Of a stretch of DNA of 12,558 nt, positions 182 to 12,519 are shown piece by piece. The translations under genes and the position numbers were made by a program. This stretch comes from Coleofasciculaceae cyanobacterium bin_20. Its GTDB lineage: Bacteria; Cyanobacteriota; Cyanobacteriia; B231. The DNA lies in assembly GCA_037445115.1 (NCBI GenBank), contig JBBILC010000141.1:1-12558 (forward strand). The letters are read 5' to 3'. A model generated the notes under the pieces. That model saw only the letters and a list, made by a program, of their open reading frames with translations. It made no database searches and was not told where the DNA came from. How positions within the stretch are numbered: the stretch's first letter is position 1; each line of letters starts with the position of its first letter.

Positions 182-489
182 CACTTCGAATAATTGCCTT
201 ATTGCGAAAATCAAGCACGCTATACCAGGCCATGCTCAATAAGCACCCCTATTTTTCGATGTGCCCTTATTATGACTAACACGATCGCGGTTAATTACAG
301 GGGTACTCACATCTCTGTCTCTTTTTCGGTGACCAGTAGTCAACCCCCTAATAAGTCCATGCCACAGCAACCTAACGGCAAAAGTGAGCGGCGGCAGATA
401 ACACCGAACACCCACAGATAACCCTTGTGCCGTCCACACCAACGCAATGTTAGCTGGCTCGAGACAAAGACATTGCTGACTCAGAAGCG

Positions 490-512
490 TAAAATAGTAG
501 GAGTAGCAAGGA
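490..512 (+). promoter_or_regulatory. Candidate -10 box TAAAAT (490-495) and Shine-Dalgarno-like aagga (508-512, 8 nt before the ATG at 521) for the antitoxin-toxin operon.
   Basis: Sequence motifs only. No convincing -35 at 17-bp spacing. Confidence 0.3.
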
Positions 513-520
513 ATTTAGCC

Positions 521-766
521 ATGAGCGTCGTTGTCCCTGATGAGATTTTAACCGCAACCCGCATGACTGAGGCTGAAATGCGTCAGGAAATTGCTGTCAT
601 GCTCTTTCAGCGCGAAAAGCTTACCCTTGCTCAAGCCAGTCGTTTTGCAGGAATACATCGTGTTGCCTTTCAACACCTACTCGCTAGTCGCTACATCCCA
701 GTACATTACGGAGTAGAGGATTTCGAGCAGGACATTCAAAATTTGCGGGAGATGGGCAGATTGTGA
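521..766 (+). CDS. UPF0175-family antitoxin, 81 aa (MSVVVPDEILTATRMTEAEMRQEIAVMLFQREKLTLAQASRFAGIHRVAFQHLLASRYIPVHYGVEDFEQDIQNLREMG). The ORF-track start at 425 is probably an upstream extension; the true start is likely the ATG at 521.
   Basis: Typical UPF0175 length and motif pattern (IPDEIL..., SLGKAAELAG-like helix-turn-helix segment, C-terminal EDLxxDLxxL). In-frame ATG at 521 with an RBS-like aagga. Sits immediately upstream of, and overlapping, a DUF3368 gene, which is the canonical pairing. Confidence 0.85.
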   Translation: MSVVVPDEILTATRMTEAEMRQEIAVMLFQREKLTLAQASRFAGIHRVAFQHLLASRYIPVHYGVEDFEQDIQNLREMGRL

Positions 767-1260
767 TTATTGTCAGTGACACATCATCTATCAACAACCT
801 TGCTGCAATCAATCACCTTCATCTTCTTAATCAACTCTATGGAACGGTTTTTATTCCCGAAGCCGTTTATCGAGAATTAACTGACCCAAATTTTCCTGTT
901 GCAGGGGCGACTGAAGTACAAACCTTTGACTGGATTCAAACTCGCGCTGTTAGCGATCGTACCCTTGTCGAAGTACTAAACAACGAACTTGATATTGGAG
1001 AGTCCGAGGCGATTGCCTTAGCCGTGGAGATTCAAGCTGATCAAGTTTTGATTGATGAACGTCGCGGTCGGCTAGTCGCAAGTAGGTTGAGTCTGCGCTA
1101 CATAGGTATCCTAGGAATTTTAGTCGAAGCAAAAAGTCAAGGCTTAATTGGTGGAGTAAAACCTTTATTGGATGCATTGCTTAATGAGGCTGGATTTTGG
1201 GTTGCAGAACCTTTGTACAACAGTGTTTTGCACCTTGTTAATGAGATCGACCTACCTTGA
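763..1260 (+). CDS. DUF3368-family PIN-like putative ribonuclease toxin, 165 aa. GTG start overlapping the antitoxin stop (GTGA at 763-766).
   Basis: The N-terminus MIIVSDTSSINNLAAINHLHLLNQLYGTVFIPEAVYREL matches the DUF3368/PIN-like pattern (hhhhDsSxLI.LakIgrLdLL..L...vhIP.aVy.E). Translational coupling to the UPF0175 gene. Confidence 0.85.
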   Translation: MIIVSDTSSINNLAAINHLHLLNQLYGTVFIPEAVYRELTDPNFPVAGATEVQTFDWIQTRAVSDRTLVEVLNNELDIGESEAIALAVEIQADQVLIDERRGRLVASRLSLRYIGILGILVEAKSQGLIGGVKPLLDALLNEAGFWVAEPLYNSVLHLVNEIDLP

Positions 1261-1509
1261 TCTTTTCTGGGTAACTGGTAAGCGTTTGGGATACTCCGCA
1301 GACAGGATAGAGCGAGATAACGACCAAGCTCACCGGACGCAGATAACTTTTGCCACTCAACCGATCACATTAAGGCGTTCCGGTGCAGCGACTTGTTATA
1401 CCGCTTACTCAGACCGAGTGTGCTCATAGATATTAGAGAGAAACTACTCAACCCTGGATTAGAGCATAGCTTCACGTACTTTAGAGTAGGTCTCATAGTT
1501 ATAAAACAG

Positions 1510-4500
1510 CTATACTGAAACGCTCGGAGAAATAGGCGTCACAAAGTCGTCTCGCATTTGATATGCAGCGGAAGAACCTGTCTCAACAAGCTGGTCGAGA
1601 ATATATAGAACCGCTTCTCGAACGCTACGATTTGATTTAAGTTGAAGCGGTTCCCCATAGACAAAGCGACGAAGCAAGACTTCAAGGTAGTAAGTAGTGG
1701 TCGAATCAGTCAGAGCTTGAGAAGCGTCTCCTGTCTTCAATCGCTCAGCTACCAATGTAAAACTTTTTGGAAGTGCTCTTTCGCCAACATGATAGAGAAA
1801 TCGGCAATAAGCTTTGAATGCAGCCGATGTCGCAGGAATACTTTTCACCAGGTTTTCTATGCGGTTCTCTTGATCCCTGAGACGTGGCCAGTATCGTACT
1901 TTATCTTTCCAGGATATTCCTAATAGTAGTTTACTCAGAAGTTGTGATGCGCTACTCGCCGTCGCATATCGTTCGTCTAACTTGCCATTCCATTTGGCAT
2001 TAGCAAAGTGGTCAGCAAAATTTTGCCAAATCTCCCAGAAGGGAGATTCACGTTCCAACTTATCTTCCTCGTAAATGAGTGCTTCAACAAACTCGCTAAC
2101 TTCCTTTGGATGGGTTTCGACAGATTGAAGGATAGGTTGATAAATTACAATCGCATGCTCAGCATCTAACTTAAGTGCAAATCTAGCGATCTGTTTTGTA
2201 AACCAAAGCTCGAACTCGAAGTCTCTATGATTATTACTATATTGGTCATGGTTATCTCTTTCCCAATCTTGAGTAAGGGCATAAGCTACTCGCTCATATA
2301 TCCTTGCCGCAGACTCGGATGTTGTCAGATAACTCAGTATCTGAAGAATGAAGCGTATCTGAAATCGCACATATCCTTGCAGGGGGTCCAAATTGCGTAA
2401 TTCATTTTCGGCGTCTATCTCTCCAGAAACTATGTCCTTTCTTATCTCTAATGCGGCCCTCTGAAACAACTCATAACCAGAGAGTTGTGCCTCATAGGGC
2501 ATTTCTTGTTGTTTTTCTCTAAGTTCCTCTGCAAGTCGTGCTTGTTTAGCTAAAGCGCCGACATAGCGCATAACAAAGTCAGGCTCAGTCTCTCCCAAGT
2601 AGTATCCCAACCCTGCTGCTGCATACTCTCTGATCTCAGTGACCGAATGGGTAAGGGCAGTAGCTGTTGCAGCAATCAGCACGTCACCAGACTTATCCAC
2701 GCCTAATTTTTGTATAGCGCACGGCAGGGTATAAGCTGCAGAACCGCCACCGCTGCCTCCAAGAACAGCATGGTGATCACTTCCGTCGTGCTTCTCAACT
2801 TCTGCGATTAACCTATCAACACACCAAGAACGATCATCGCTGTTCATTTCATCCCAATAATCTCTTATGCACACTGAAGCTAGCAATCCCGATCCACCTT
2901 GGCTTAAATCAAAAGGATTTTGCGTTTCTTCTCTGCTATCTTGCGCTTCTGAATCATGGAGCTTGGCAAGAGAGAGCATTTCTTGCCAGGACTGTGAATC
3001 ATTATCTAGATTTCTGTCCCAGGCGGCTTGTCCCCAAAGCCAAAGAGAGAGCACTTTTGTATGCTGAGCTTGCTGTTCAGAATTGCTATCGACTATTTCC
3101 TGTACATCCGGCTCTATTGCACCCAAGCTTATAGAGAAGTAGCGTCGCGTATCTTCTTCTGATCCCGATGGTGTTGTGTTGACTGTCACTTCCTCGCCTA
3201 ATTGGAAGCCTCGGACATCCATACGATGAAGCGCCAGCCTCCAGACAAGGTCTCCCTCTGATTGATCTTCCAGAGGTGGCAAATTTGCCCGGTGCTGATC
3301 AATGATTTGCCACACTTCCTCACATCTATCCCCAAGTTGAAGGTTGATCGCAAGGGATTCGAGATTACTCTTTCTATGGGGAAGAGCGCCCGACTCAATT
3401 CGCTCATGGTCATAAGCCTTACCCATAGGCTGCAAGGAGGGCATGAGCTTTTCGATGCTGAAATTATTCGCTTGATCATGAACCATTCGGCTACGGTCAA
3501 GGTCGATAATATCTTGAGTAGAAAGCAGTGCGAGTCCTGCACGACCACACTTGTCTGGATGTGCAATACAAACACTGGCGACAACTGCTGTCACTGCGAC
3601 ATTGTTGCTGTCTTGCAGCAACTTAAGAAGCCAGGACTCAAGATTTACATCCTCAAGCTTAGCGATTTCGAGGAGCCAATGTTCGAGCGCCATCAATGCA
3701 GACTGTAAAACATAAGGAGCTACAGAGGTACCTCGGTATATAGCGTAGAGACGCCCGTTAGCCCACTGTGAGATAGGTTGGCTTTCCTCTGGTATATTCA
3801 GTTCGACTTGCCATGCTGGTTCCAGCGGATCAAATGGCCACTTTTGTTCGCCGTACCAAGAGCAAGCATGGTTTATCAGAGTAGTGATAAAGTCAACACC
3901 GATACGGGGATGCGATCGCAAAAGAGCCCAGAATGGTCCCCGAATAGCACTTGCTGGAACTGAGAATTTGTGTGCTACGTGTTGCCGAATGCCGAAGTGT
4001 GAATCGATATTCAATGACCAGTGGTGGCGATACCCGTGCTCCCGGATTCTCTGAAGATCTTCGTCGGTAAGACAAAAGTAAGACATTGCAAGATCTATGA
4101 TCTCTTCTGGGAAGTCACGACAGGCAAAAGTTCCGCTGCTTTCGGTTAAAAGTAGATCTGCAAAGTCTTTAGCTACGTCATCGTGGTTATTTGCTGATTT
4201 GGCTCGACGCAAGATGTTTCTAAATGTATCAGCAGCAGAGTTTGGTATTTTGGCAAAAATTTCCAGCGCTCGCTTTCTCAAATCCCTTGAGTTATAGCCG
4301 TTTAGATCATCAAGAAGCCGAGCAATGATTTTGCCAGCATCCTTATATCCTTCTGGCTGAGGTTTCCAGTAAGCAACTTGTTGTGACCAGTCTTCTACCA
4401 ATCCCAGAACTATTCCGAAGTGCTCAGGTAGCAATTTTTCTAACTCTTCGCTGACGATTTTTAGTACCGGAGACCAAGCAGTTCCTGTGGGAACAAGAAG

Positions 4501-6639
4501 TTGTGATGTAAGCCCACGTTGATTAGGAAACAAGTCGTGAGCAGTTTTGCAGGCAACGCGAAGTAAATGAATAACACGGATCAACAGTTCTGCATCATGT
4601 GCAAGAAGTACAGCTCCGTTACGAAGCAGAAAGTCATTGGCGGAGGAAGACAGAAGTGTGCATATGATTGTGTCGTCCCGAAAATGGGCCGGAAGAGTGT
4701 CATCTTGGAAAGCAGATAAGATGAAGGTATCTGCACTCTCTAACTCAAGCCTTAGTGCCTCGCCAAGCCACTTTCTATAACCTCGCCGGAGGGCTGGATA
4801 TCCCCCGATATCCTCTGCAAATCCTGCTGCTTCGCCTTCATTAATAACAAATTGACCATGTAGCCAATGTATAGTCGCCCAGTCCTCCAAAACATCATGT
4901 GCAGGAGCAGCTAGTGACTGGCTGTCCTCGGAGAACGCCACCAAGCCATCCCTATGTAAGGCTTCCAACACATTGGCGTCAAAGTTATCACATCGAACAT
5001 ACGGACGAAGTTCTTTAGCCCTTTGTAAAGAAAGCTGCAAGAATACCTGTTCTCTTTTACGAGGCATACCATCAGCAGCATCTACATCAGAGCGGATTAT
5101 CTCACTCCAGCACCTATCTCTAAATTCCTTTTCATTATCCGGTAACTGTCCTTCCGACCAATTAATCCGAGCAGCTATATCTAAAAAATATGGTGAGCGA
5201 ATCAGCTTTTTGAGGTTTGGATTCTGAACCGCTACAGCAATCTGGGGAATTTCTTGCGCGACTTGGTCTAGCTCTTCATCTGTAAAAGGACGAACATCGA
5301 TCAGCTCATATTGGAGAGCGACCTGTTCTAGCAAAGATATTTTTACCGTATCTATGGAGTAGTCACGGCAAGTGAGTATTAAACGAAGATTTTGATCCTG
5401 TCTTACAAGCCGCAAGAGATCCATAAATGCTTTTCGCTCTGACGACTCAAGTAAGCGCTCTACACTCTCGATGAGAATGAACTTTCTCCCTTGAGCCGAT
5501 AATAGACTCAACAATCTGTTTGCTGTCAATGAATCTTGAATCGCTTGTAGAGACTGGTCTATATGGCTACTGGCAAATTCTTCAGCTCGAAAGACTAAAC
5601 AGAAACAGTTCTCTTTAATTTGCTCAACTACGTTTTTTGCTACTGCTGACTTTCCATAACCTGCTGGTCCATTGATGAGAGTGACTTGTGTCGCTTCTAG
5701 TGAATCAAGAATTTTAGTCTCTAGAATCTCTCGCCGAACTTTGATATGACTAGCAATAGTAGTATTGATGCCATCCAGTGTTACTAAACTGTGATCGAGA
5801 AGTTGTCTTAAAAGTCCGCCAGATCGAGGTGCTAAAGCAGAGTGACGTTGACGCAAAACCTCTGGTAGGTTGTTATGTCTATAGCTGCCTGCCGCTGGCA
5901 TTCCGTCAGACCCACCAACTATTTGAAGGAGATCGCTCCAAGTAGATTCTGCTGCTGCAAACGGATCAGGTTCGCTTGAGCAGAAAGCAAGCAGGTTTTT
6001 TGTCCACGCCTCTTGCTGAGCAGTTTTTGTAGTGAGGTCTAAGCTGATTACATGTAGAACACACAAGAAGCGCCAGAAGTCGTCAGCATTAATAGTTGTC
6101 GCAAAACTCTTCTCCAGAATACTTTGGATGGTTTCTGCTTGCTTCCGGGCGGTTTTAGAAAGAAGACCGTCTATTTTAATCCGCCGTTCGAAGTCTGAAC
6201 CATCAACAGAAGCCCGTGCAAAGTCTAATAAGCTGCCAAATTTGTCCAGCAATAAGTTGGTTCCTTGAAGCGTAATGAGAGCGAGTCGATCAGTCTCAGG
6301 GGAGAAGTTGGCCGAATTCTTGAAATCTTGCCAAAAATCAGCAAACGCCTTTTGACACGCATCGTTTTCACTGCTGATAGTGAAACTCCGTTTTACTTGT
6401 GCAGCAAGATGGCGATACTGGCCTCCACCTTTATTGCCTACAACCAATACATCGTCAGTCTGCCAGCCGAGATGCTCAGTCTGAAAATGCACTTCTTCGA
6501 CTTGGCAATCTTTTAAGATAGGGGGAATACCTCTAACAAGCAATAATGCAAGAAACTGTGCTCCAACGTGCTGCTCAAAAAACGTACCGCTTCCGCCTGT
6601 GGCAATCGGACTTGATACTGCTTGCTTTTTGCTACTCAT
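1510..6639 (-). CDS. Giant 1709-aa multidomain protein with three recognisable parts. Residues ~15-90 form an N-terminal Mrr-like PD-(D/E)xK nuclease domain: FE at 21-22, TDD at 61-63, QVK at 81-83. Residues ~310-560 form a central STAND-type P-loop NTPase: Walker A GPAGYGKS at 324-331, Walker B-like FILIESVE at 387-394, sensor-1-like LILTCR at 420-425. The C-terminal ~1150 aa are unassigned and look helical. Candidate Avs/AVAST-like antiphage NLR-like protein.
   Basis: Single uninterrupted ORF of 5130 nt. Nuclease and NTPase motifs were read from the translation; Walker A maps to nt 5647-5670. The nuclease-NTPase-sensor order matches Avs-type antiviral STAND proteins. It lies in a compositionally foreign block next to a TA pair and a recombinase remnant. 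Confidence 0.85.
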   Translation of the reverse strand: MSSKKQAVSSPIATGGSGTFFEQHVGAQFLALLLVRGIPPILKDCQVEEVHFQTEHLGWQTDDVLVVGNKGGGQYRHLAAQVKRSFTISSENDACQKAFADFWQDFKNSANFSPETDRLALITLQGTNLLLDKFGSLLDFARASVDGSDFERRIKIDGLLSKTARKQAETIQSILEKSFATTINADDFWRFLCVLHVISLDLTTKTAQQEAWTKNLLAFCSSEPDPFAAAESTWSDLLQIVGGSDGMPAAGSYRHNNLPEVLRQRHSALAPRSGGLLRQLLDHSLVTLDGINTTIASHIKVRREILETKILDSLEATQVTLINGPAGYGKSAVAKNVVEQIKENCFCLVFRAEEFASSHIDQSLQAIQDSLTANRLLSLLSAQGRKFILIESVERLLESSERKAFMDLLRLVRQDQNLRLILTCRDYSIDTVKISLLEQVALQYELIDVRPFTDEELDQVAQEIPQIAVAVQNPNLKKLIRSPYFLDIAARINWSEGQLPDNEKEFRDRCWSEIIRSDVDAADGMPRKREQVFLQLSLQRAKELRPYVRCDNFDANVLEALHRDGLVAFSEDSQSLAAPAHDVLEDWATIHWLHGQFVINEGEAAGFAEDIGGYPALRRGYRKWLGEALRLELESADTFILSAFQDDTLPAHFRDDTIICTLLSSSANDFLLRNGAVLLAHDAELLIRVIHLLRVACKTAHDLFPNQRGLTSQLLVPTGTAWSPVLKIVSEELEKLLPEHFGIVLGLVEDWSQQVAYWKPQPEGYKDAGKIIARLLDDLNGYNSRDLRKRALEIFAKIPNSAADTFRNILRRAKSANNHDDVAKDFADLLLTESSGTFACRDFPEEIIDLAMSYFCLTDEDLQRIREHGYRHHWSLNIDSHFGIRQHVAHKFSVPASAIRGPFWALLRSHPRIGVDFITTLINHACSWYGEQKWPFDPLEPAWQVELNIPEESQPISQWANGRLYAIYRGTSVAPYVLQSALMALEHWLLEIAKLEDVNLESWLLKLLQDSNNVAVTAVVASVCIAHPDKCGRAGLALLSTQDIIDLDRSRMVHDQANNFSIEKLMPSLQPMGKAYDHERIESGALPHRKSNLESLAINLQLGDRCEEVWQIIDQHRANLPPLEDQSEGDLVWRLALHRMDVRGFQLGEEVTVNTTPSGSEEDTRRYFSISLGAIEPDVQEIVDSNSEQQAQHTKVLSLWLWGQAAWDRNLDNDSQSWQEMLSLAKLHDSEAQDSREETQNPFDLSQGGSGLLASVCIRDYWDEMNSDDRSWCVDRLIAEVEKHDGSDHHAVLGGSGGGSAAYTLPCAIQKLGVDKSGDVLIAATATALTHSVTEIREYAAAGLGYYLGETEPDFVMRYVGALAKQARLAEELREKQQEMPYEAQLSGYELFQRAALEIRKDIVSGEIDAENELRNLDPLQGYVRFQIRFILQILSYLTTSESAARIYERVAYALTQDWERDNHDQYSNNHRDFEFELWFTKQIARFALKLDAEHAIVIYQPILQSVETHPKEVSEFVEALIYEEDKLERESPFWEIWQNFADHFANAKWNGKLDERYATASSASQLLSKLLLGISWKDKVRYWPRLRDQENRIENLVKSIPATSAAFKAYCRFLYHVGERALPKSFTLVAERLKTGDASQALTDSTTTYYLEVLLRRFVYGEPLQLKSNRSVREAVLYILDQLVETGSSAAYQMRDDFVTPISPSVSV

Positions 6640-6850
6640 CAGCGATTTCTATCTAGAGCGTATGGTGTTTGATGTGTTTTGTCTAAGAGCTTCAACTATT
6701 TTAAGCAACCAAGCTGCACCGAGTGATCTTGATGAACTGGTGTGACTCAACAGGTAGGCGGTATAACTATGTATTCAACGTCAGATCTGATGGATAAGCC
6801 CGGATATCAGGATCTTATCATGCAGATCCGCGTGATAATACCTGGTTCTG

Positions 6851-6993
6851 GGGTGTTATTTATCAAAGTTAATGTTTTAAGTCCGAGATTTCAGGGTGTT
6901 ATCCGTCACTTTTGACGTTTAAGTTGGGGAAATTGGGGTGTTATCCGTCACTTTTAAATGATAACACCCGGATTCAGGGTGTTATCCGTCATT
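6851..6993. repeat. Phased array of GGGTGTTAT(C) repeats. Direct copies at 6851-6864 (degenerate: gggtgttatttatc), 6894-6913, 6936-6955 and 6977-6993, spaced 41-43 bp. One inverted copy gataacaccc at 6960-6969 forms a 9-bp inverted repeat with the 6936 copy (GGTGTTATC-14 bp-GATAACACC). Candidate recombinase-binding attI-like site or operator array.
   Basis: Exact 17-20 bp matches read in the sequence (gggtgttatccgtcactttt twice, gggtgttatccgtcatt once). Spacing is about 4 helical turns. Located immediately upstream of the IntI-like fragment and upstream of, and divergent from, the giant minus-strand gene. Confidence 0.8.
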
Positions 6994-6998
6994 GCCTT

Positions 6999-7292
6999 GT
7001 GCTGGACAGTCAGCCACCGCCACCGCCACCCCGCCTGCTGGATCAGGTCAGGCAAGCCATTCGCCTTAAGCACTTCAGCTTAAAGACCAAAAAGTCCTAC
7101 GTTTACTACATCCGCGACTTCATCCTGTTTCACGGCAAACGCCATCCTAAGGACATGGGGGCAGATGAGATCTGGGCCTACCTGGCGCATCTAGCTGTTG
7201 AACGCTCCGTTGCCGCCTCCATGCAAACAGTCGCCCTGAGTGCCTTGCTGTTTCTTTACCGTCAAGTCTTGCAGGGTGATCCCCCCTTTTGT
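6999..7292 (+). pseudogene. Truncated tyrosine recombinase. Only the N-terminal SAM-like/core-binding domain of an integron-integrase (IntI)-like protein is present. Homology stops at ~7290, where the dispersed repeat begins, and the catalytic domain is absent.
   Basis: From memory, the translation LLDQVRQAIRLKHFSLKTKKSYVYYIRDFILFHGKRHPKDMGADEIWAYLAHLAVERSVAASMQTVALSALLFLYRQVLQGD aligns without gaps to the IntI1 N-terminus [82 protein letters not shown]. A proline-rich stretch preceding LDQ is present in both. The likely start is the in-frame GTG at 6999. The ORF-track ATG at 6912 would run through the repeat array. Downstream of 7290 the ORF continues in frame through the repeat element, which I take to be coincidental. 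Confidence 0.7.
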
Positions 7293-7419
7293 TATCGAGA
7301 TAGCTGGTCTGCGGTCCAGATTTTGGGGCAACCTAATTTTTTAGAAATGGACGGGTTTATCGAGATGGCTGGTCTGTGGTCCAGATTTTGCTGCAACCCG
7401 CCCCTACAACAATTTTGGG
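7293..7419. repeat. Right copy of the ~100-bp dispersed repeat (7323-7419), preceded by an internal tandem partial duplication: 7293-7332 atcgagatagctggtctgcggtccagattttggggcaacc is nearly identical to 7359-7398 atcgagatggctggtctgtggtccagattttgctgcaacc.
   Basis: Manual alignment with 65-181 and internal self-alignment. It sits exactly at the boundary between the AT-rich island and HIP1-rich DNA, and abuts the 3' end of the 7440-7922 gene. Confidence 0.75.
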
Positions 7420-7439: not shown

Positions 7440-7922
7440 TTAGAGTTTATAACCAATTTGGCGGAGGAGCGATCGCCGGGATTCAATATCAGCGGGAGCC
7501 TCAACACCCTGCGGTGAGGCTCCATCAATCACACCTAAAATGCCGCGTCCTTGGTTGGTCTCAGCAATAATTACCTGGACGGGATTGGCCGTTGCGCAGT
7601 AGATAGAGCAAACCTCTGGGCACTGTTTAATGCCATTGAGAAAGTTGATGGGATAGGCATCCTTGAGCAGAATAATAAAGCTGTGACCGGCCCCGATCGC
7701 TTGGGCATTGGCGATCGCGGCTGCCTGCAACCCCTCATCATTCCCCACCGCGCGAATTAAACAGGGACCCGATGCCTCGCAAAAGGCTAAACCAAACTTA
7801 ACCTGGGAAGAAGTCCCTACCAAAACTTCATAAAGATCTTCAACAGTTTTAATAAAATGGCTTTGGCCCAGGATGAGATTACTTCCCTCTGGCACGGTGA
7901 GGTCAACGGTGTGAAGTTCCAT
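7440..7922 (-). CDS. 160-aa conserved protein, probably of the adenosine-specific kinase family (PF04008/DUF355-like; typical of cyanobacteria and archaea).
   Basis: Clean 160-aa ORF with native-like composition, including HIP1 sites. The length and motifs (GQSHFIKTVEDL, IGAGHSF, CATANPVQVI, GRGILGV) fit my recollection of that family, which I could not verify. Confidence 0.55.
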   Translation of the reverse strand: MELHTVDLTVPEGSNLILGQSHFIKTVEDLYEVLVGTSSQVKFGLAFCEASGPCLIRAVGNDEGLQAAAIANAQAIGAGHSFIILLKDAYPINFLNGIKQCPEVCSIYCATANPVQVIIAETNQGRGILGVIDGASPQGVEAPADIESRRSLLRQIGYKL

Positions 7923-8173: not shown

Positions 8174-10435
8174 ATGAAACTGATCCAGAGTCCTTTCCGG
8201 TTGACTTCGCTACGGCAATCGCGGAAGGCTGCTCGTGGTTTAGCATCTGTAGCGGTGTCCATGCTGGCAACCGGGGCGATCGCGGCAACGGCTTCTCTGC
8301 CCTCAGCGTTGGCAACCCCAGACCCTACCCCAACCTTGATCCCAACCCAACCCCAAACGCCACTGCGATCGGGTCAGCCAACCCCATCTACCCAACCGAT
8401 CCAACTGGCGCAACCGGCCCCCAGCCCGGTTATTTACCAGATGGGGGTTGGGGATTTTCTCGGTCCACTCTTTGTCACGGGCATCATCATTGTCGGGGGA
8501 GCTATTTTCTTCTCTTCGATTACCGGCCTGGTGATTATTAGTGAACAGGAAGTCGGGATTATCATCAAAAAGTGGGGGGGGCGCCTTACCCCCGGACATT
8601 TGGTTGCCCTACACGGTGAAGCCGGTATCCAGGCCGATACCCTCGTCCCTGGCTGGCATTGGGGCTATTTCCCCTGGCAATATACGGTGCAAAAGCAGCC
8701 CGTGATTGTGGTACCCCAAGGAGAGATCGCGTTAATTGTGGCGAATGATGGGGTGGCGATTCCACCGGAGCGGATTCTGGGGAAAGTCGTCCCCTGTGAC
8801 AACTTTCAAGATGCCCGCAAGTTTCTCTCCAATGGCGGTGAAAAGGGGCGGCAATTGGACTTTCTCACCGCAGGCACCTACCGCATTAACACAGCCCTTT
8901 TCCAGGTAATCACCTCTGGAAACACGGGAAAGCATGGGGTGAGTGCCGATAAACTGCGGGTCTATTCAGTTCAGTCCGATAAGGTGGGCATTGTCACCAC
9001 CCTCGATGGCCAGCCGATCGAGGCCGGGGAAATTGCCGGTCCAACCGTGCCGGGACATAACAATTTCCAGAATGGCGAAAAGTTTATCCGGGCCAATGGT
9101 CGCCGAGGGTTACAGGAGCAAATCCTGCTGTCCGGTTCCTGGAACTTGAATCCCTGGTTTGCGCAGGTGGAGCAGGTCCCGATGACGGAAATTCCGATCG
9201 GCTATGTGGGCGTTGTGATCTCCTTTGTGGGGAAAGCCCATGAAGATGTCAGTGGTGCGTCCTTTACCCACGGCGATTTGGTCGAGCCAGGGCATAAGGG
9301 CGTTTGGACGGAACCGCTCTATCCCGGTAAGCATCCGATTAACATCCGGGTGATGAAGGTGGAATTGGTGCCCACGACCAATATTGTGCTGAACTGGTCT
9401 GCCCGTACCGAGCGCCATAATTACGATCAAAAACTGGAATCCTTGCAGGTGCGATCGCGGGATGGGTTTGCCTTTGATCTGGAAATTGCCCAGATTATCC
9501 ATGTTGGGGCGTTAGATGCACCTAAGGTGATTTCCCGTGTGGGGTCAATGCAAAATCTGGTGGATCATGTATTAGAACCCACGATCGGTAACTATTTCCG
9601 CAACTCGGCCCAGGATTATACGGTGCTCGACTTTTTGAGTGCTCGGAGTGAGCGGCAAGCGGAAGCGGCTGAATATATTAAAGCCGCCCTGCGTAGCTAC
9701 GATGTGCAAGCGATCGACACGCTGATTGGTGAGATTCAACCTCCCGCCGAACTCATGAAAACCCAGACCGAGCGGAAGATTGCCGAAGAACAGCGCAAGA
9801 CGTTTGAAATGCAACAACAGGCCCAAACCCAGCGACAACAGTTGGTGCGGGAAACGGCCCTCGCCGACATCCAACAGGAGATGGTGAAGTCGGAACAGAG
9901 TGTCAAAATCGCGGCATTGCAAGCCCAAGCCCAGATCAAACAATCGGAAGGACAAGCCGAATCGATCAAATTGCGGGCTGTGGCCGATGCTGAATCCATT
10001 CGGGCTACGGGTCGGGCAAGGGCGGAAAGCTATCATGCTGGGGTACAGGCCCTCGGTGAAAAGGGCTATACCGCAATGCAACTGATGCAGATTATTGGCG
10101 ATCATCAGGTGCGGCTGATTCCCGATGTGTTGGTGGGCAGTAGTAGCAGTGGCAGTCTGGTGGATGGCCTACTCTCGATGATTCTTTGGAACCAGGCGGG
10201 GAAAACACCGGGTAATGGGGGGACACCGCTACCCTCACCGCTACCGTCGCCATCCGACAAGCAACCCTTCAATGGCGTCGCATCGCCGCCGCCCCCTCCT
10301 GCTGCGCCACAGTCGGCCTCACTACCGGCCCCACGACCTGTACCGCCACCGGCCCCACTGCCTGCGCCCCCGCCTGTGCCCCCGCGATCGGTCACTACGG
10401 GTACTGCGTCCCCCGATGACCCCTTTACGTCCTGA
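8174..10435 (+). CDS. SPFH/band-7 flotillin-like membrane protein, 753 aa. The N-terminal signal-like segment is followed by a Pro/Thr-rich linker and a hydrophobic hairpin/TM (FLGPLFVTGIIIVGGAIFFSSITGLVII). Next come the SPFH domain, a Gln/Ala/Glu-rich coiled-coil EA-repeat region, and a C-terminal proline-rich tail.
   Basis: EQEVGIIIKKWGG...LVPGWHW...QPVIVVP resembles the flotillin N-terminal SPFH entry motif. The long AEEQRK...QAQAQIKQSEGQAESIKLRAVADAESIRA coiled-coil is typical of bacterial FloT-like proteins. RBS-like aagg before the ATG. HIP1 sites lie within. Confidence 0.75.
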   Translation: MKLIQSPFRLTSLRQSRKAARGLASVAVSMLATGAIAATASLPSALATPDPTPTLIPTQPQTPLRSGQPTPSTQPIQLAQPAPSPVIYQMGVGDFLGPLFVTGIIIVGGAIFFSSITGLVIISEQEVGIIIKKWGGRLTPGHLVALHGEAGIQADTLVPGWHWGYFPWQYTVQKQPVIVVPQGEIALIVANDGVAIPPERILGKVVPCDNFQDARKFLSNGGEKGRQLDFLTAGTYRINTALFQVITSGNTGKHGVSADKLRVYSVQSDKVGIVTTLDGQPIEAGEIAGPTVPGHNNFQNGEKFIRANGRRGLQEQILLSGSWNLNPWFAQVEQVPMTEIPIGYVGVVISFVGKAHEDVSGASFTHGDLVEPGHKGVWTEPLYPGKHPINIRVMKVELVPTTNIVLNWSARTERHNYDQKLESLQVRSRDGFAFDLEIAQIIHVGALDAPKVISRVGSMQNLVDHVLEPTIGNYFRNSAQDYTVLDFLSARSERQAEAAEYIKAALRSYDVQAIDTLIGEIQPPAELMKTQTERKIAEEQRKTFEMQQQAQTQRQQLVRETALADIQQEMVKSEQSVKIAALQAQAQIKQSEGQAESIKLRAVADAESIRATGRARAESYHAGVQALGEKGYTAMQLMQIIGDHQVRLIPDVLVGSSSSGSLVDGLLSMILWNQAGKTPGNGGTPLPSPLPSPSDKQPFNGVASPPPPPAAPQSASLPAPRPVPPPAPLPAPPPVPPRSVTTGTASPDDPFTS

Positions 10436-10647: not shown

Positions 10648-12519
10648 ATGTCCTATTGCTTTAATCCTGACTGTCCGCAGCCCCAGAATCCCGATGGAAT
10701 TACCCACTGTCAGCAGTGTGGCTGGGCATTGCAATTGCAGGATCGCTATCAAGCGATTAGGTTACTGGGTCAGGGCGGATTTGGGCGCACCTTGCTGGCG
10801 ATCGCGGCTCCAAATGCCACCGATCGCGAACCGTCCGCCTGTGTGATTAAGCAGTTTTTACCCCAGCCCCTCCGTGCGAATCACCAAGACAGGGCACGCA
10901 CCCTGTTTCACCAGGAAGCCCAACGCTTGGCAGAATTAGGCCAGCATCCCCAAATTCCTGATTTTTTCGATTTTTTCCAGGCGGGTGAACAGCTTTATTT
11001 AGTTCAAGAATATATTGCGGGGGTTACCTTAGCGGAGCAACTCGCGACCCAAGGGGTGTTCACAGAAGCCCAAATTTGGCAAGTATTGACTGACCTGTTA
11101 CCCGTCCTCAAGTTTATCCACGATCGCCAGGTGATCCATCGCGATATTAAACCCGAAAATATCATTCGCCCGGTTGCAAACGAGTTAGCCAACGAGTTAG
11201 GCAATAACGCCCCCCTGGTCCTGGTTGATTTTGGCTCTGCCAAGGTGGTTACCCCGATCGCCCAGTTACAAACGGGAACCACGATCGGCAGTGCTGAATA
11301 CGTTGCCCCCGAACAGGCGCGGGGAAAGGCGGTCTTTGCCAGTGATCTCTACAGTTTGGGGGTGACCTGTATTCACCTGCTCACGGGATTGTCTCCCTTT
11401 GATTTGGTAGATAGTGGGCATAATACGTGGGTTTGGCAACAATTTTTGACCACGCCCGTTAGCCCAGAACTGGGTCAAATGCTCGATCGCCTTATTCACC
11501 CAGCCCTAGACCAGCGATTCCCATCCGCAGATGCTGTGATGCAGGCCATGTCGGGATTTGCTCTGATCAATCCCAAGGACGCTCGTAGCCAGAAGTCCCG
11601 CGATCGTGCCTTATCTCAGGCATTGCCGATCAACCTTTCCTGCCCTTGTGAATCTATCCTCCGTGGACATACGGCAGCAGTCAATACCGTAGCAGTCAAT
11701 ACCGTTGCGATGGGTTCTGAGGAGCCATTAATCGTGAGTGGGGGGCAGGATAAAGTGATGCGATTTTGGAACCTAAAAACAGGACAGCCCCTCCAATATT
11801 TCTCTTTGGAGACCCCCATTTTGTCGGTAGCCTTTAGTGCAGATGGGAAACGTTTGGCCGCAGCCGGTCAAGATAACAGGGTGCGCGTATGGTTAGTAGA
11901 AACGCTCCAAGCGTCTTTAACATTAGCTGAACATACCCAATTAGCAGGACATACCCAGGCCGTAAAAGCGATCGCCTTTCATCCGCAATATCCCATTTTA
12001 GCCAGTGGTAGCCGTGATAAAACGATTCGGATTTGGCAGGTTCAGACGAGGGAACTGGTCGCAACCCTGACCCAGCATCGGTTAGCCGTCAATACCCTCG
12101 CCTTTAGCCCGGATGGGGCTTGGTTGGCCAGTGGGGGCAGCGATCACCGGGTTTGTCTGTGGCGCGTTCATGGCGAGGCGGGTAAACCCAGGCTCACCCA
12201 CCACAAAACGTTGACCGATCATGTCGATAGCGTGTTGGCCGTTGCTTTTAGCCCCGATAGCCAAACGTTGGCAACGGGGGGAGACGATCGCACGATTAAA
12301 CTCTGGGATGTGGCGCAGGGTCACCTTCAGCAAACCCTATCGGCCCACTCCTGGTCGGTTTCTGCCCTCAGTTTTAGTCCCATTACAAGCTGTTCATCTG
12401 CCTCTACAGAAAAGCCTTTTTTAATCAGTGGCGGGTGGGATGGGTTACTGAAATTGTGGCCGATCGCGCATACGGAGATACAACCGGCGGCTTTGAGCCT
12501 ATCGGGCCAGAAGTGTTGA
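10648..12519 (+). CDS. Ser/Thr protein kinase, 623 aa, with three parts. An N-terminal zinc-ribbon has the pattern CFNPDC...HCQQCG. The Hanks-type kinase domain carries GQGGFG, VIKQF, HRDIKPENII, DFGSAK and YVAPE. The C-terminal WD40 beta-propeller has repeats ending RFWN, RVWL, IRIWQ, VCLWR, IKLWD and LKLWP.
   Basis: All canonical kinase subdomain motifs are present in order. Multiple WD repeats with GH...WD-like spacing. This architecture is common among cyanobacterial Ser/Thr kinases. Confidence 0.9.
   Translation: MSYCFNPDCPQPQNPDGITHCQQCGWALQLQDRYQAIRLLGQGGFGRTLLAIAAPNATDREPSACVIKQFLPQPLRANHQDRARTLFHQEAQRLAELGQHPQIPDFFDFFQAGEQLYLVQEYIAGVTLAEQLATQGVFTEAQIWQVLTDLLPVLKFIHDRQVIHRDIKPENIIRPVANELANELGNNAPLVLVDFGSAKVVTPIAQLQTGTTIGSAEYVAPEQARGKAVFASDLYSLGVTCIHLLTGLSPFDLVDSGHNTWVWQQFLTTPVSPELGQMLDRLIHPALDQRFPSADAVMQAMSGFALINPKDARSQKSRDRALSQALPINLSCPCESILRGHTAAVNTVAVNTVAMGSEEPLIVSGGQDKVMRFWNLKTGQPLQYFSLETPILSVAFSADGKRLAAAGQDNRVRVWLVETLQASLTLAEHTQLAGHTQAVKAIAFHPQYPILASGSRDKTIRIWQVQTRELVATLTQHRLAVNTLAFSPDGAWLASGGSDHRVCLWRVHGEAGKPRLTHHKTLTDHVDSVLAVAFSPDSQTLATGGDDRTIKLWDVAQGHLQQTLSAHSWSVSALSFSPITSCSSASTEKPFLISGGWDGLLKLWPIAHTEIQPAALSLSGQKC

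Follow-up and report, generated by a model that had tools for sequence, protein, structure and literature searches.

We identified, in the 12,558-bp stretch of DNA analysed here as a whole (the window), a region at approximately 367–7283 that is very probably a decayed and immobilised chromosomal integron with an Avs4-like gene in its first cassette. It belongs to an integron clade that occurs in Leptolyngbya-like cyanobacteria. Direct support for this reading comes from the identity of the integrase (IntI), from the attC sites and their polarity, from a conserved platform with its left boundary, and from the gene content of the region. A first-pass annotation had already proposed a decayed or immobilised integron remnant at this locus, and that proposal held, with an IntI fragment, an attI core, two attC sites and a truncated intI all being found; on the other hand, it had overlooked the attC sites, the toxin-antitoxin-like second cassette, how far attI extends and the repeat by which intI is truncated.

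The integrase gene was detected as a pseudogene (6999..7283, + strand) of 95 codons, beginning with the GTG at 6999, in which only the N-terminal SAM-like (core-binding) domain is retained. Past 7283, the open frame continues through unrelated sequence to a stop codon at 7517. These 95 codons encode an integron-integrase N-terminal domain. The frame from the GTG matched Pfam Phage_int_SAM_4 (E 8e-26), and the 95-aa fragment matched the NCBIfam integron-integrase models TIGR02249 (E 3e-24, positions 1–81 of 315) and PRK15417 (E 1e-23), with XerA, at an E-value of only 3e-4, being the best Xer-type model. Its sole PDB match was VchIntIA (IntI4; 2A3V, E 3.5e-14). When compared by tblastn against plasmids, the fragment showed 65% identity to the annotated integron integrase of a Kovacikia minuta plasmid and 49.4% identity to the class 1 integrase IntI1 over residues 12–94, the latter within the roughly 45–50% that had been estimated in the first-pass annotation. 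The comparison of IntI against Xer and phage integrases, which that annotation had put forward as a check, came out on the side of IntI, as TIGR02249, PRK15417, 2A3V and IntI1 all outranked Xer.

The catalytic domain, already described as lacking in the first-pass annotation, was not found when the whole window was searched by tblastn with intact orthologues, which recovered residues 8–94 only. Ten intact cyanobacterial orthologues, from the loci numbered L006–L008, L016, L026, L033, L035, L042, L049 and L065, scored 438–481 bits with TIGR02249 (cut-off 265) over positions 1–313 of 315, and Xer models aligned to them in two pieces only, flanking the IntI-specific segment. Since the orthologues have both the catalytic and the IntI-specific domain and the window lacks both, intI in the window is a remnant and not part of a functional integron. 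In the closest relative, L092, the encoded protein is 91% identical to the window fragment and an ATG stands at the position of the window GTG. Nonsense codons were present in truncated relatives, at codon 89 in L092 and at several positions in L094, and the truncation points varied by locus.

The best 120 protein-database matches to the 95-aa fragment were all shorter than 170 aa and N-domain-only, and most of them came from contigs of 0.5–3 kb. A family of stand-alone N-domain proteins was considered for these and rejected on account of the varying truncation points, the nonsense codons, the short contigs and the fact that genomic copies are mostly intact; when species-representative genomes were scanned, 80 loci were obtained, at which 65 of the 80 proteins were approximately full length. 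The all-short list of the best 120 matches is probably made up of contig-end partials and pseudogenes, together with a ranking bias, with no true stand-alone family behind it.

In place of the 3′ two-thirds of intI stands a MITE-like repeat (7292..7412, + strand), present as a partial tandem copy (7292–7333) and a full copy. The repeat is ~90 nt long with the ends GGGGCAA...CCCGCCCC, and a further direct copy was detected at 82–172, beyond the last attC; the direct copies bracket the whole integron remnant. No significant fold was found for it, and it was detected in this genome only and in no other fetched locus. As the window is the whole 12.6-kb contig of a metagenome-assembled genome (MAG), the array may continue beyond position 1.

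Beside the 5′ end of intI we identified a predicted attI, whose core is at the junction with the first cassette. The core (6761..6767, − strand) reads GTTATAC on the minus (top) strand and GTATAAC on the plus strand, and is of the GTTRRRY type with one deviation. Seven related loci share the platform of the window, namely L001, L005–L008, L092 and, for part of it only, L002. In the alignment of the window with L001, L002 and L005–L008 (A5), among which L006 and L007 have an intact intI, the columns are conserved from TAAC|TATRTATTCA.CGTCAGATC onward, and in L092, the eighth locus when the window is counted, the platform is present from TAAC rightwards with a visibly unrelated left flank. This homology boundary at TAAC, in A5 and in L092, places the putative attI crossover at 6766|6767. 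In cyanobacterial intI loci that are more distant, GTCTAAC|TAT takes the position of the attI core. The attI-like region recognised in the first-pass annotation is supported by comparative evidence, and it reaches further left than had been given there, to 6761. Intact loci agree with this arrangement, which had been another of the suggested checks: L006 and L007 carry the repeat platform directly between a gene that passes the IntI models and the attC array.

The interval from the attI core to the intI start codon is filled by five tandem units of ~42 bp (6788..6997), each consisting of an xTAAxxCC half-site, 7–9 bp and a GGGTGTTATCCGTCAC-type half-site. The same five-unit arrangement was found in L001 and L005–L008. 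Direct copies of GGGTGTTATCCGTCAC are on the + strand at 6894 and 6936 (both exact) and at 6977 (with one mismatch), and the inverted copy GATAACACCC is at 6960–6969, just as phased direct repeats with one inverted copy had been described upstream of the integrase; a second, degenerate palindrome is at 6834–6859. Three GGGTGTTATCCGTCAC matches were reached in 0 of 200 shuffles. The earlier description had captured the three best-preserved units, but the array comprises five units and starts from 6788, not from 6851. Spacings within the repeat family were 42, 41, 43 and 126 bp, and the units contain short CGTCAC-N4-GACG palindromes. TRF did not call the 42-bp array, the divergence among its units being too great, and the five-unit reading rests on the repeat spacings and on the comparison with the relatives. 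Hairpin-like covariation of the half-sites was considered and not adopted, as complementary partners existed but were often in other units and non-nested, a pattern that chance resemblance between variants of a single consensus could produce equally well.

By analogy with DR1 and DR2 of attI1, the five units are most likely accessory IntI-binding sites, and they probably overlap the promoters of intI and of the cassettes. A promoter scan at attI gave one sigma-70-like site (6985–6958, minus strand), compared with 0.9 expected by chance, and promoter and terminator scans around attI and the attC site of the first cassette gave nothing above chance.

Scanning the window with Rfam revealed nothing relevant and no tRNA, the only match being a chance one to an S4 leader (E 0.42); thus, attC models were built from related loci. 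Locus L007, which has an intact intI, carries two 86-nt repeats with RYYYAAC...GTTRRRY ends upstream of intI, and two sites of the window aligned with them (alignment A3). To avoid circularity, an nhmmer profile and a covariance model (R2) were built from the L007 sites alone, with the window excluded. Site b, which terminates cassette 2 (367..458, + strand; ACCTAAC at 370–376, GTTAGCT at 449–455, putative crossover 375|376), was matched by nhmmer at 371–456 (E 1e-3) and by R2 at 368–457 (31.1 bits, E 7e-7). Site a, which terminates cassette 1 (1312..1404, + strand; AGATAAC at 1315–1321, GTTATAC at 1395–1401, putative crossover 1320|1321), was matched at 1316–1398 (E 2e-3) and at 1313–1403 (28.9 bits, E 3e-6), respectively. 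The next-best match in the window had an nhmmer E-value of 5 and an R2 score of 9.3 bits. The search with covariance models for attC sites, called for in the first-pass annotation, thus recovered two predicted sites on the + strand, on the side and with the polarity expected for a divergent intI. Having two attC sites 945 bp apart and a truncated intI, the locus is also a CALIN, a class defined by two or more attC sites spaced no more than 4 kb apart with no intact intI nearby.

The + strand is the folded 'bottom' strand of these attC sites. Site a was the best-folding site in the window (DNA fold of −13.7 kcal/mol, z −2.05), in which an unpaired spacer separates the R stem from the L stem, and the 3′ arm of the latter has two single-base bulges. 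These bulges match the bases that are extrahelical in the bottom strand, the recombinogenic one, which is here the sense strand of intI, as in canonical integrons. The fold of site b was no better than that of shuffled sequence, and it is probably a degenerate site, homologous to other attC sites yet poorly folding. Extra internal copies of AGATAAC, which resembles the attI half-site GATAAC, were observed twice in site b (396–402 and 416–422) and once in site a (1341–1347), where a further AGATAAC serves as the terminal core.

The behaviour of the attC models was also examined across loci. With model R1, 42 of the 51 non-training matches were upstream of intI on the + strand, compared with 20% expected (p 1e-21). 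The broader model R3 gave 175 matches, distributed as 110 upstream on the + strand, 63 downstream on the − strand (the arrangement of an inverted integrase), 2 downstream on the + strand and 0 upstream on the − strand, and it detected five attC sites in the expected position at the Kovacikia plasmid locus, which was absent from all model building. Among 33 attC sites, AAC/GTT was invariant and two bulge columns were present in the consensus 3′ arm. In the same set, 90.9% of the cells were paired and 15 of the 19 pairs had compensatory changes, compared with 25–45% of cells paired in slid controls, counts which lean towards the model because the alignment was fitted to it.

Cassette 1 (1321..6766, − strand; 5446 bp) is bounded by the crossover of attC a and by the attI core, and contains attC a and a single gene encoding 1709 aa. 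Its non-coding ends measure 108 bp from the stop codon to attC a and 127 bp from the attI crossover to the start codon, and the former distance leaves room for a later insertion. Across the loci searched, attC spacing had a median of 638 bp and a 95th percentile of 2.2 kb; cassette 1 is the largest of 37 first cassettes, and just one of 127 attC-to-attC spacings is larger (6.8 kb, in L006). Cassette 2 (376..1320, − strand; 945 bp), which extends between the AA|C crossover points of the two attC sites, b and a, has two genes on the + strand, opposite to the direction of the array. One is a UPF0175-family gene (521..766, + strand) encoding a putative antitoxin of 81 aa (Pfam PF03683, E 1e-23; a gene call in L085; a weak match to PADLOC PDC-S70), and the other is a DUF3368 gene (763..1260, + strand) encoding a putative toxin of 165 aa (Pfam PF11848, E 5e-15; PADLOC PDC-S70, E 1e-67). 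The GC contents of the cassettes are 45.3% and 45.7%, compared with 53% in the right flank. The cassette position that had been assigned to the STAND gene is where we found it, between the attI core and attC a and on the top strand of the cassette, and the gene, said to begin ~200 bp upstream and to be transcribed divergently, starts 212 bp to the left of the first repeat given at that time.

The gene in cassette 1 (1510..6639, − strand; 1709 aa) is an apparently intact Avs4-like STAND NTPase antiphage gene. The protein aligned with the NCBIfam Avs4 model NF041815 at 662 bits, with residues 274–1698 on model positions 159–1577 of 1579, a score that is below the equivalog cut-off of 1500, so the equivalog level was not reached. 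It also matched PADLOC Avs4 (607 bits) and PDB 8DGF (EcAvs4, E 5e-90), and by homology it is predicted to combine a STAND NTPase with a C-terminal sensor related to that of Avs4. The NTPase and the sensor align with those of Avs4 (AVAST type 4; EcAvs4, PDB 8DGF) over about 1400 residues, whereas the first ~275 aa do not match the first 158 positions of the model. No Pfam match to residues 1–300 was obtained at E-values up to 10; the N-terminal ~275 aa (5815–6639 of the window, minus strand) are conserved over their full length in homologues, at 40–62% identity, and constitute an effector domain without a recognised family. Full-length Avs4 homologues (49–62% identity) were found in three other contexts at five loci (L087–L091), with no attC nearby. 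The travel of Avs4 as a cassette thus lacks independent support from these loci, and we infer its capture from architecture only.

According to the mechanism proposed here, the former integrase would have catalysed recombination between folded attC sites and attI, at the GTTATAC core of the latter, so that cassettes were inserted beside attI. Two of these would be left, the Avs4-like cassette first and read away from intI, and the cassette with the UPF0175/DUF3368 pair second and reversed. A deletion associated with the MITE-like repeat would have taken the catalytic two-thirds of intI, and after this loss any further shuffling of the array would require an integrase acting in trans. A Pc promoter at attI may drive the Avs4-like gene. 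The binding of IntI to the units, the Pc-driven expression of Avs4 and its capture by attC × attI recombination are the parts of the reading that we infer. On balance, we lean towards the 1709-aa Avs4-type gene being a genuine single-gene cassette of 5.4 kb, made and captured in a cyanobacterial lineage with an attC of the lineage type and a five-unit attI.

It could also be that the integron remnant is real and that the Avs4-like gene is not a cassette gene, having entered by another route and either interrupted or replaced an older, small cassette between attI and attC a. We consider this unlikely. The 5446 bp are an outlier among first cassettes and among attC spacings, the non-coding stretches of 108 bp and 127 bp at the cassette ends and the homologues elsewhere without attC sites would both agree with such an entry, and published surveys describe cassette-borne defence systems as small. 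However, no transposase, inverted repeat or second boundary was seen within 1321–6766, the orientation of the gene is that of the cassette, GC is uniform over both cassettes, and the attC at the end of cassette 1 is the one that folds best in the window. Large cassettes are also not foreign to cyanobacterial integrons, which hold cassettes of 2–2.5 kb and, in L006, the 6.8-kb interval. For the five units, an alternative role is mainly that of a transcription-factor operator or promoter of intI and/or of the first cassette, rather than of IntI recombination sites. They span the whole interval from the core to the intI start, the necessary place of the intI promoter, with a phasing of ~42 bp, about four helical turns, that suits cooperative binding; the only promoter-like match sits in the unit nearest to intI, and the CGTCAC-N4-GACG palindromes would be in keeping with an operator as well. 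This we judge quite improbable, as the half-sites GTTAT/ATAAC resemble the cores of the integron's own attI and attC (GTTATAC, AGATAAC) and also the IntI1-binding direct repeats of attI1. Moreover, the array and intI are found together throughout the clade, and distant cyanobacterial intI genes are accompanied by analogous phased palindromes of other sequence, a pattern that fits co-evolution with each integrase. The operator and IntI-binding roles are in any case not mutually exclusive.

Two further readings concern the integrase fragment itself. About one third of intI genes are pseudogenes (PMC2426708), which argues against the 95-aa core-binding domain having been kept, together with its array, to regulate the neighbouring defence gene by binding DNA. 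That proposal would draw on the open frame from GTG 6999, on the best 120 database matches being all N-domain-only and on the good preservation of the array; set against these are the differing truncation points, the nonsense codons of L092 and L094, the origin of most short matches from 0.5–3 kb contigs, the approximately full-length proteins at 65 of the 80 scanned loci, and the change of the start codon from ATG to GTG, and we hold it to be very improbable. Tyrosine recombinase remnants commonly adjoin defence genes, and the fragment could then be that of a generic phage, ICE or Xer integrase with arm-type repeats, the STAND gene merely being part of a defence island. We give this hardly any credence, given that the fragment matches IntI-specific models and structures best and almost nothing else, that the orthologues have the IntI-specific segment, that attC sites of correct polarity flank the genes, and that no tRNA or other Rfam feature was detected in the window.

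The integron remnant is of a kind that is already known; it is the size of the cassette and the five-unit layout of attI that are unusual. Integrons have been documented in Cyanobacteria (PMC4889954; PMC2426708). With sedentary chromosomal integrons and with pseudo-integrons, in which an intI pseudogene adjoins a cluster of attC sites (CALIN), both catalogued by IntegronFinder (PMC4889954) and by Nemergut et al. 2008 (PMC2426708), the window shares a divergent intI, an attI and cassettes ending in attC (RYYYAAC...GTTRRRY); as in sedentary integrons, the attC sites of its one array are alike, its integrase is decayed in the manner of pseudo-integrons, and it comes from a known host phylum. It differs from catalogued pseudo-integrons in keeping only the N-terminal 95 aa of intI and in having a first cassette longer than 4 kb. 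That length is the threshold with which IntegronFinder clusters attC sites, and its search for intI pseudogenes uses a C-terminal profile of IntI (PMC4889954). Because the profile is C-terminal, the fragment in the window would not be linked to the cassettes, and with the threshold added, IntegronFinder run with default settings would probably report a two-site CALIN only, with Avs4 outside of it.

The attI1 site of class 1 integrons consists of a simple site with L and R boxes and of the direct repeats DR1 and DR2, which are bound by IntI1. A GTTRRRY-type core at the cassette junction and GTTA-containing repeats extending from the core to intI are common to attI1 and the window. Instead of two direct repeats, however, the window has five phased units of ~42 bp with two opposed half-sites each (about ten half-sites), which are putative IntI sites, and unlike in attI1, no clear inverted L box was seen beside the core in the subgroup to which the window belongs. 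Defence cassettes of integrons have been surveyed as small and streamlined, with at most two components, and mostly in Vibrio (bioRxiv 10.1101/2024.07.02.601686; 10.1101/2024.07.02.601719). The window resembles them in having a defence gene in a cassette and a toxin-antitoxin-like cassette alongside, and differs from them in that the defence gene is a STAND NTPase of 1709 aa in a 5.4-kb cassette, in a cyanobacterial MAG.

If the 5.4-kb cassette is genuine, cassette genesis and recombination are not limited to small genes, and standard annotation settings would consistently miss large defence cassettes as well as N-terminal integron remnants. The window suggests that a very large single-gene defence system can also be stored in an integron, here in the cyanobacteria, whose integrons have received little study. 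It offers a concrete case for examining whether cassette size is limited by biology or only seems to be so through the thresholds used in annotation, and it defines a conserved five-unit attI architecture for one clade of environmental integrases. The general understanding of integrons is unchanged by it.

Similar integrons in relatives carried other gene contents. At 4317–5860 of L001 (MAG GCA_039189765), an attI of the window type is followed by a truncated intI, together with a single cassette containing two genes of the dCTP-deaminase family (DCD); dCTP deaminase is an enzyme type known from antiphage defence. A remnant at 4979–6495 of L002 comprises an intI fragment, a partial attI platform, a response-regulator gene and a weak attC-like site (24 bits), with the response-regulator gene sitting between attI and the attC-like site. 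Contigs of the L002 type carry an intI-fragment protein of 164 aa that was annotated by NCBI in Synechococcus elongatus. The integron of Kovacikia minuta plasmid pB (L095; NZ_CP083584.1, 530–8945) has an intact intI and five attC sites. Its first cassette (~2.1 kb) encodes a cytosine methyltransferase and a hypothetical gene product, resembling a restriction-modification system, and another of its cassettes, of 2.5 kb, encodes an AAA ATPase. In L006 (Leptothoe sp. PORK10), the 6.8-kb interval without an attC match (713–7418) has three large ORFs of high GC content, all on the minus strand, and it may be another oversized cassette or may hold attC sites that were missed by the models.

In the right flank of the window, a gene at 10648–12519 encodes a fusion of a Ser/Thr kinase and WD40 repeats that also has a 4-Cys prefix domain, and showed strong PADLOC matches to PD-T4-6 and the mad6 kinase. 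It is adjoined by a gene for a 753-aa SPFH-domain protein (8174–10435). The WD40-kinase region may be defence-related, or the gene may encode just a generic kinase.
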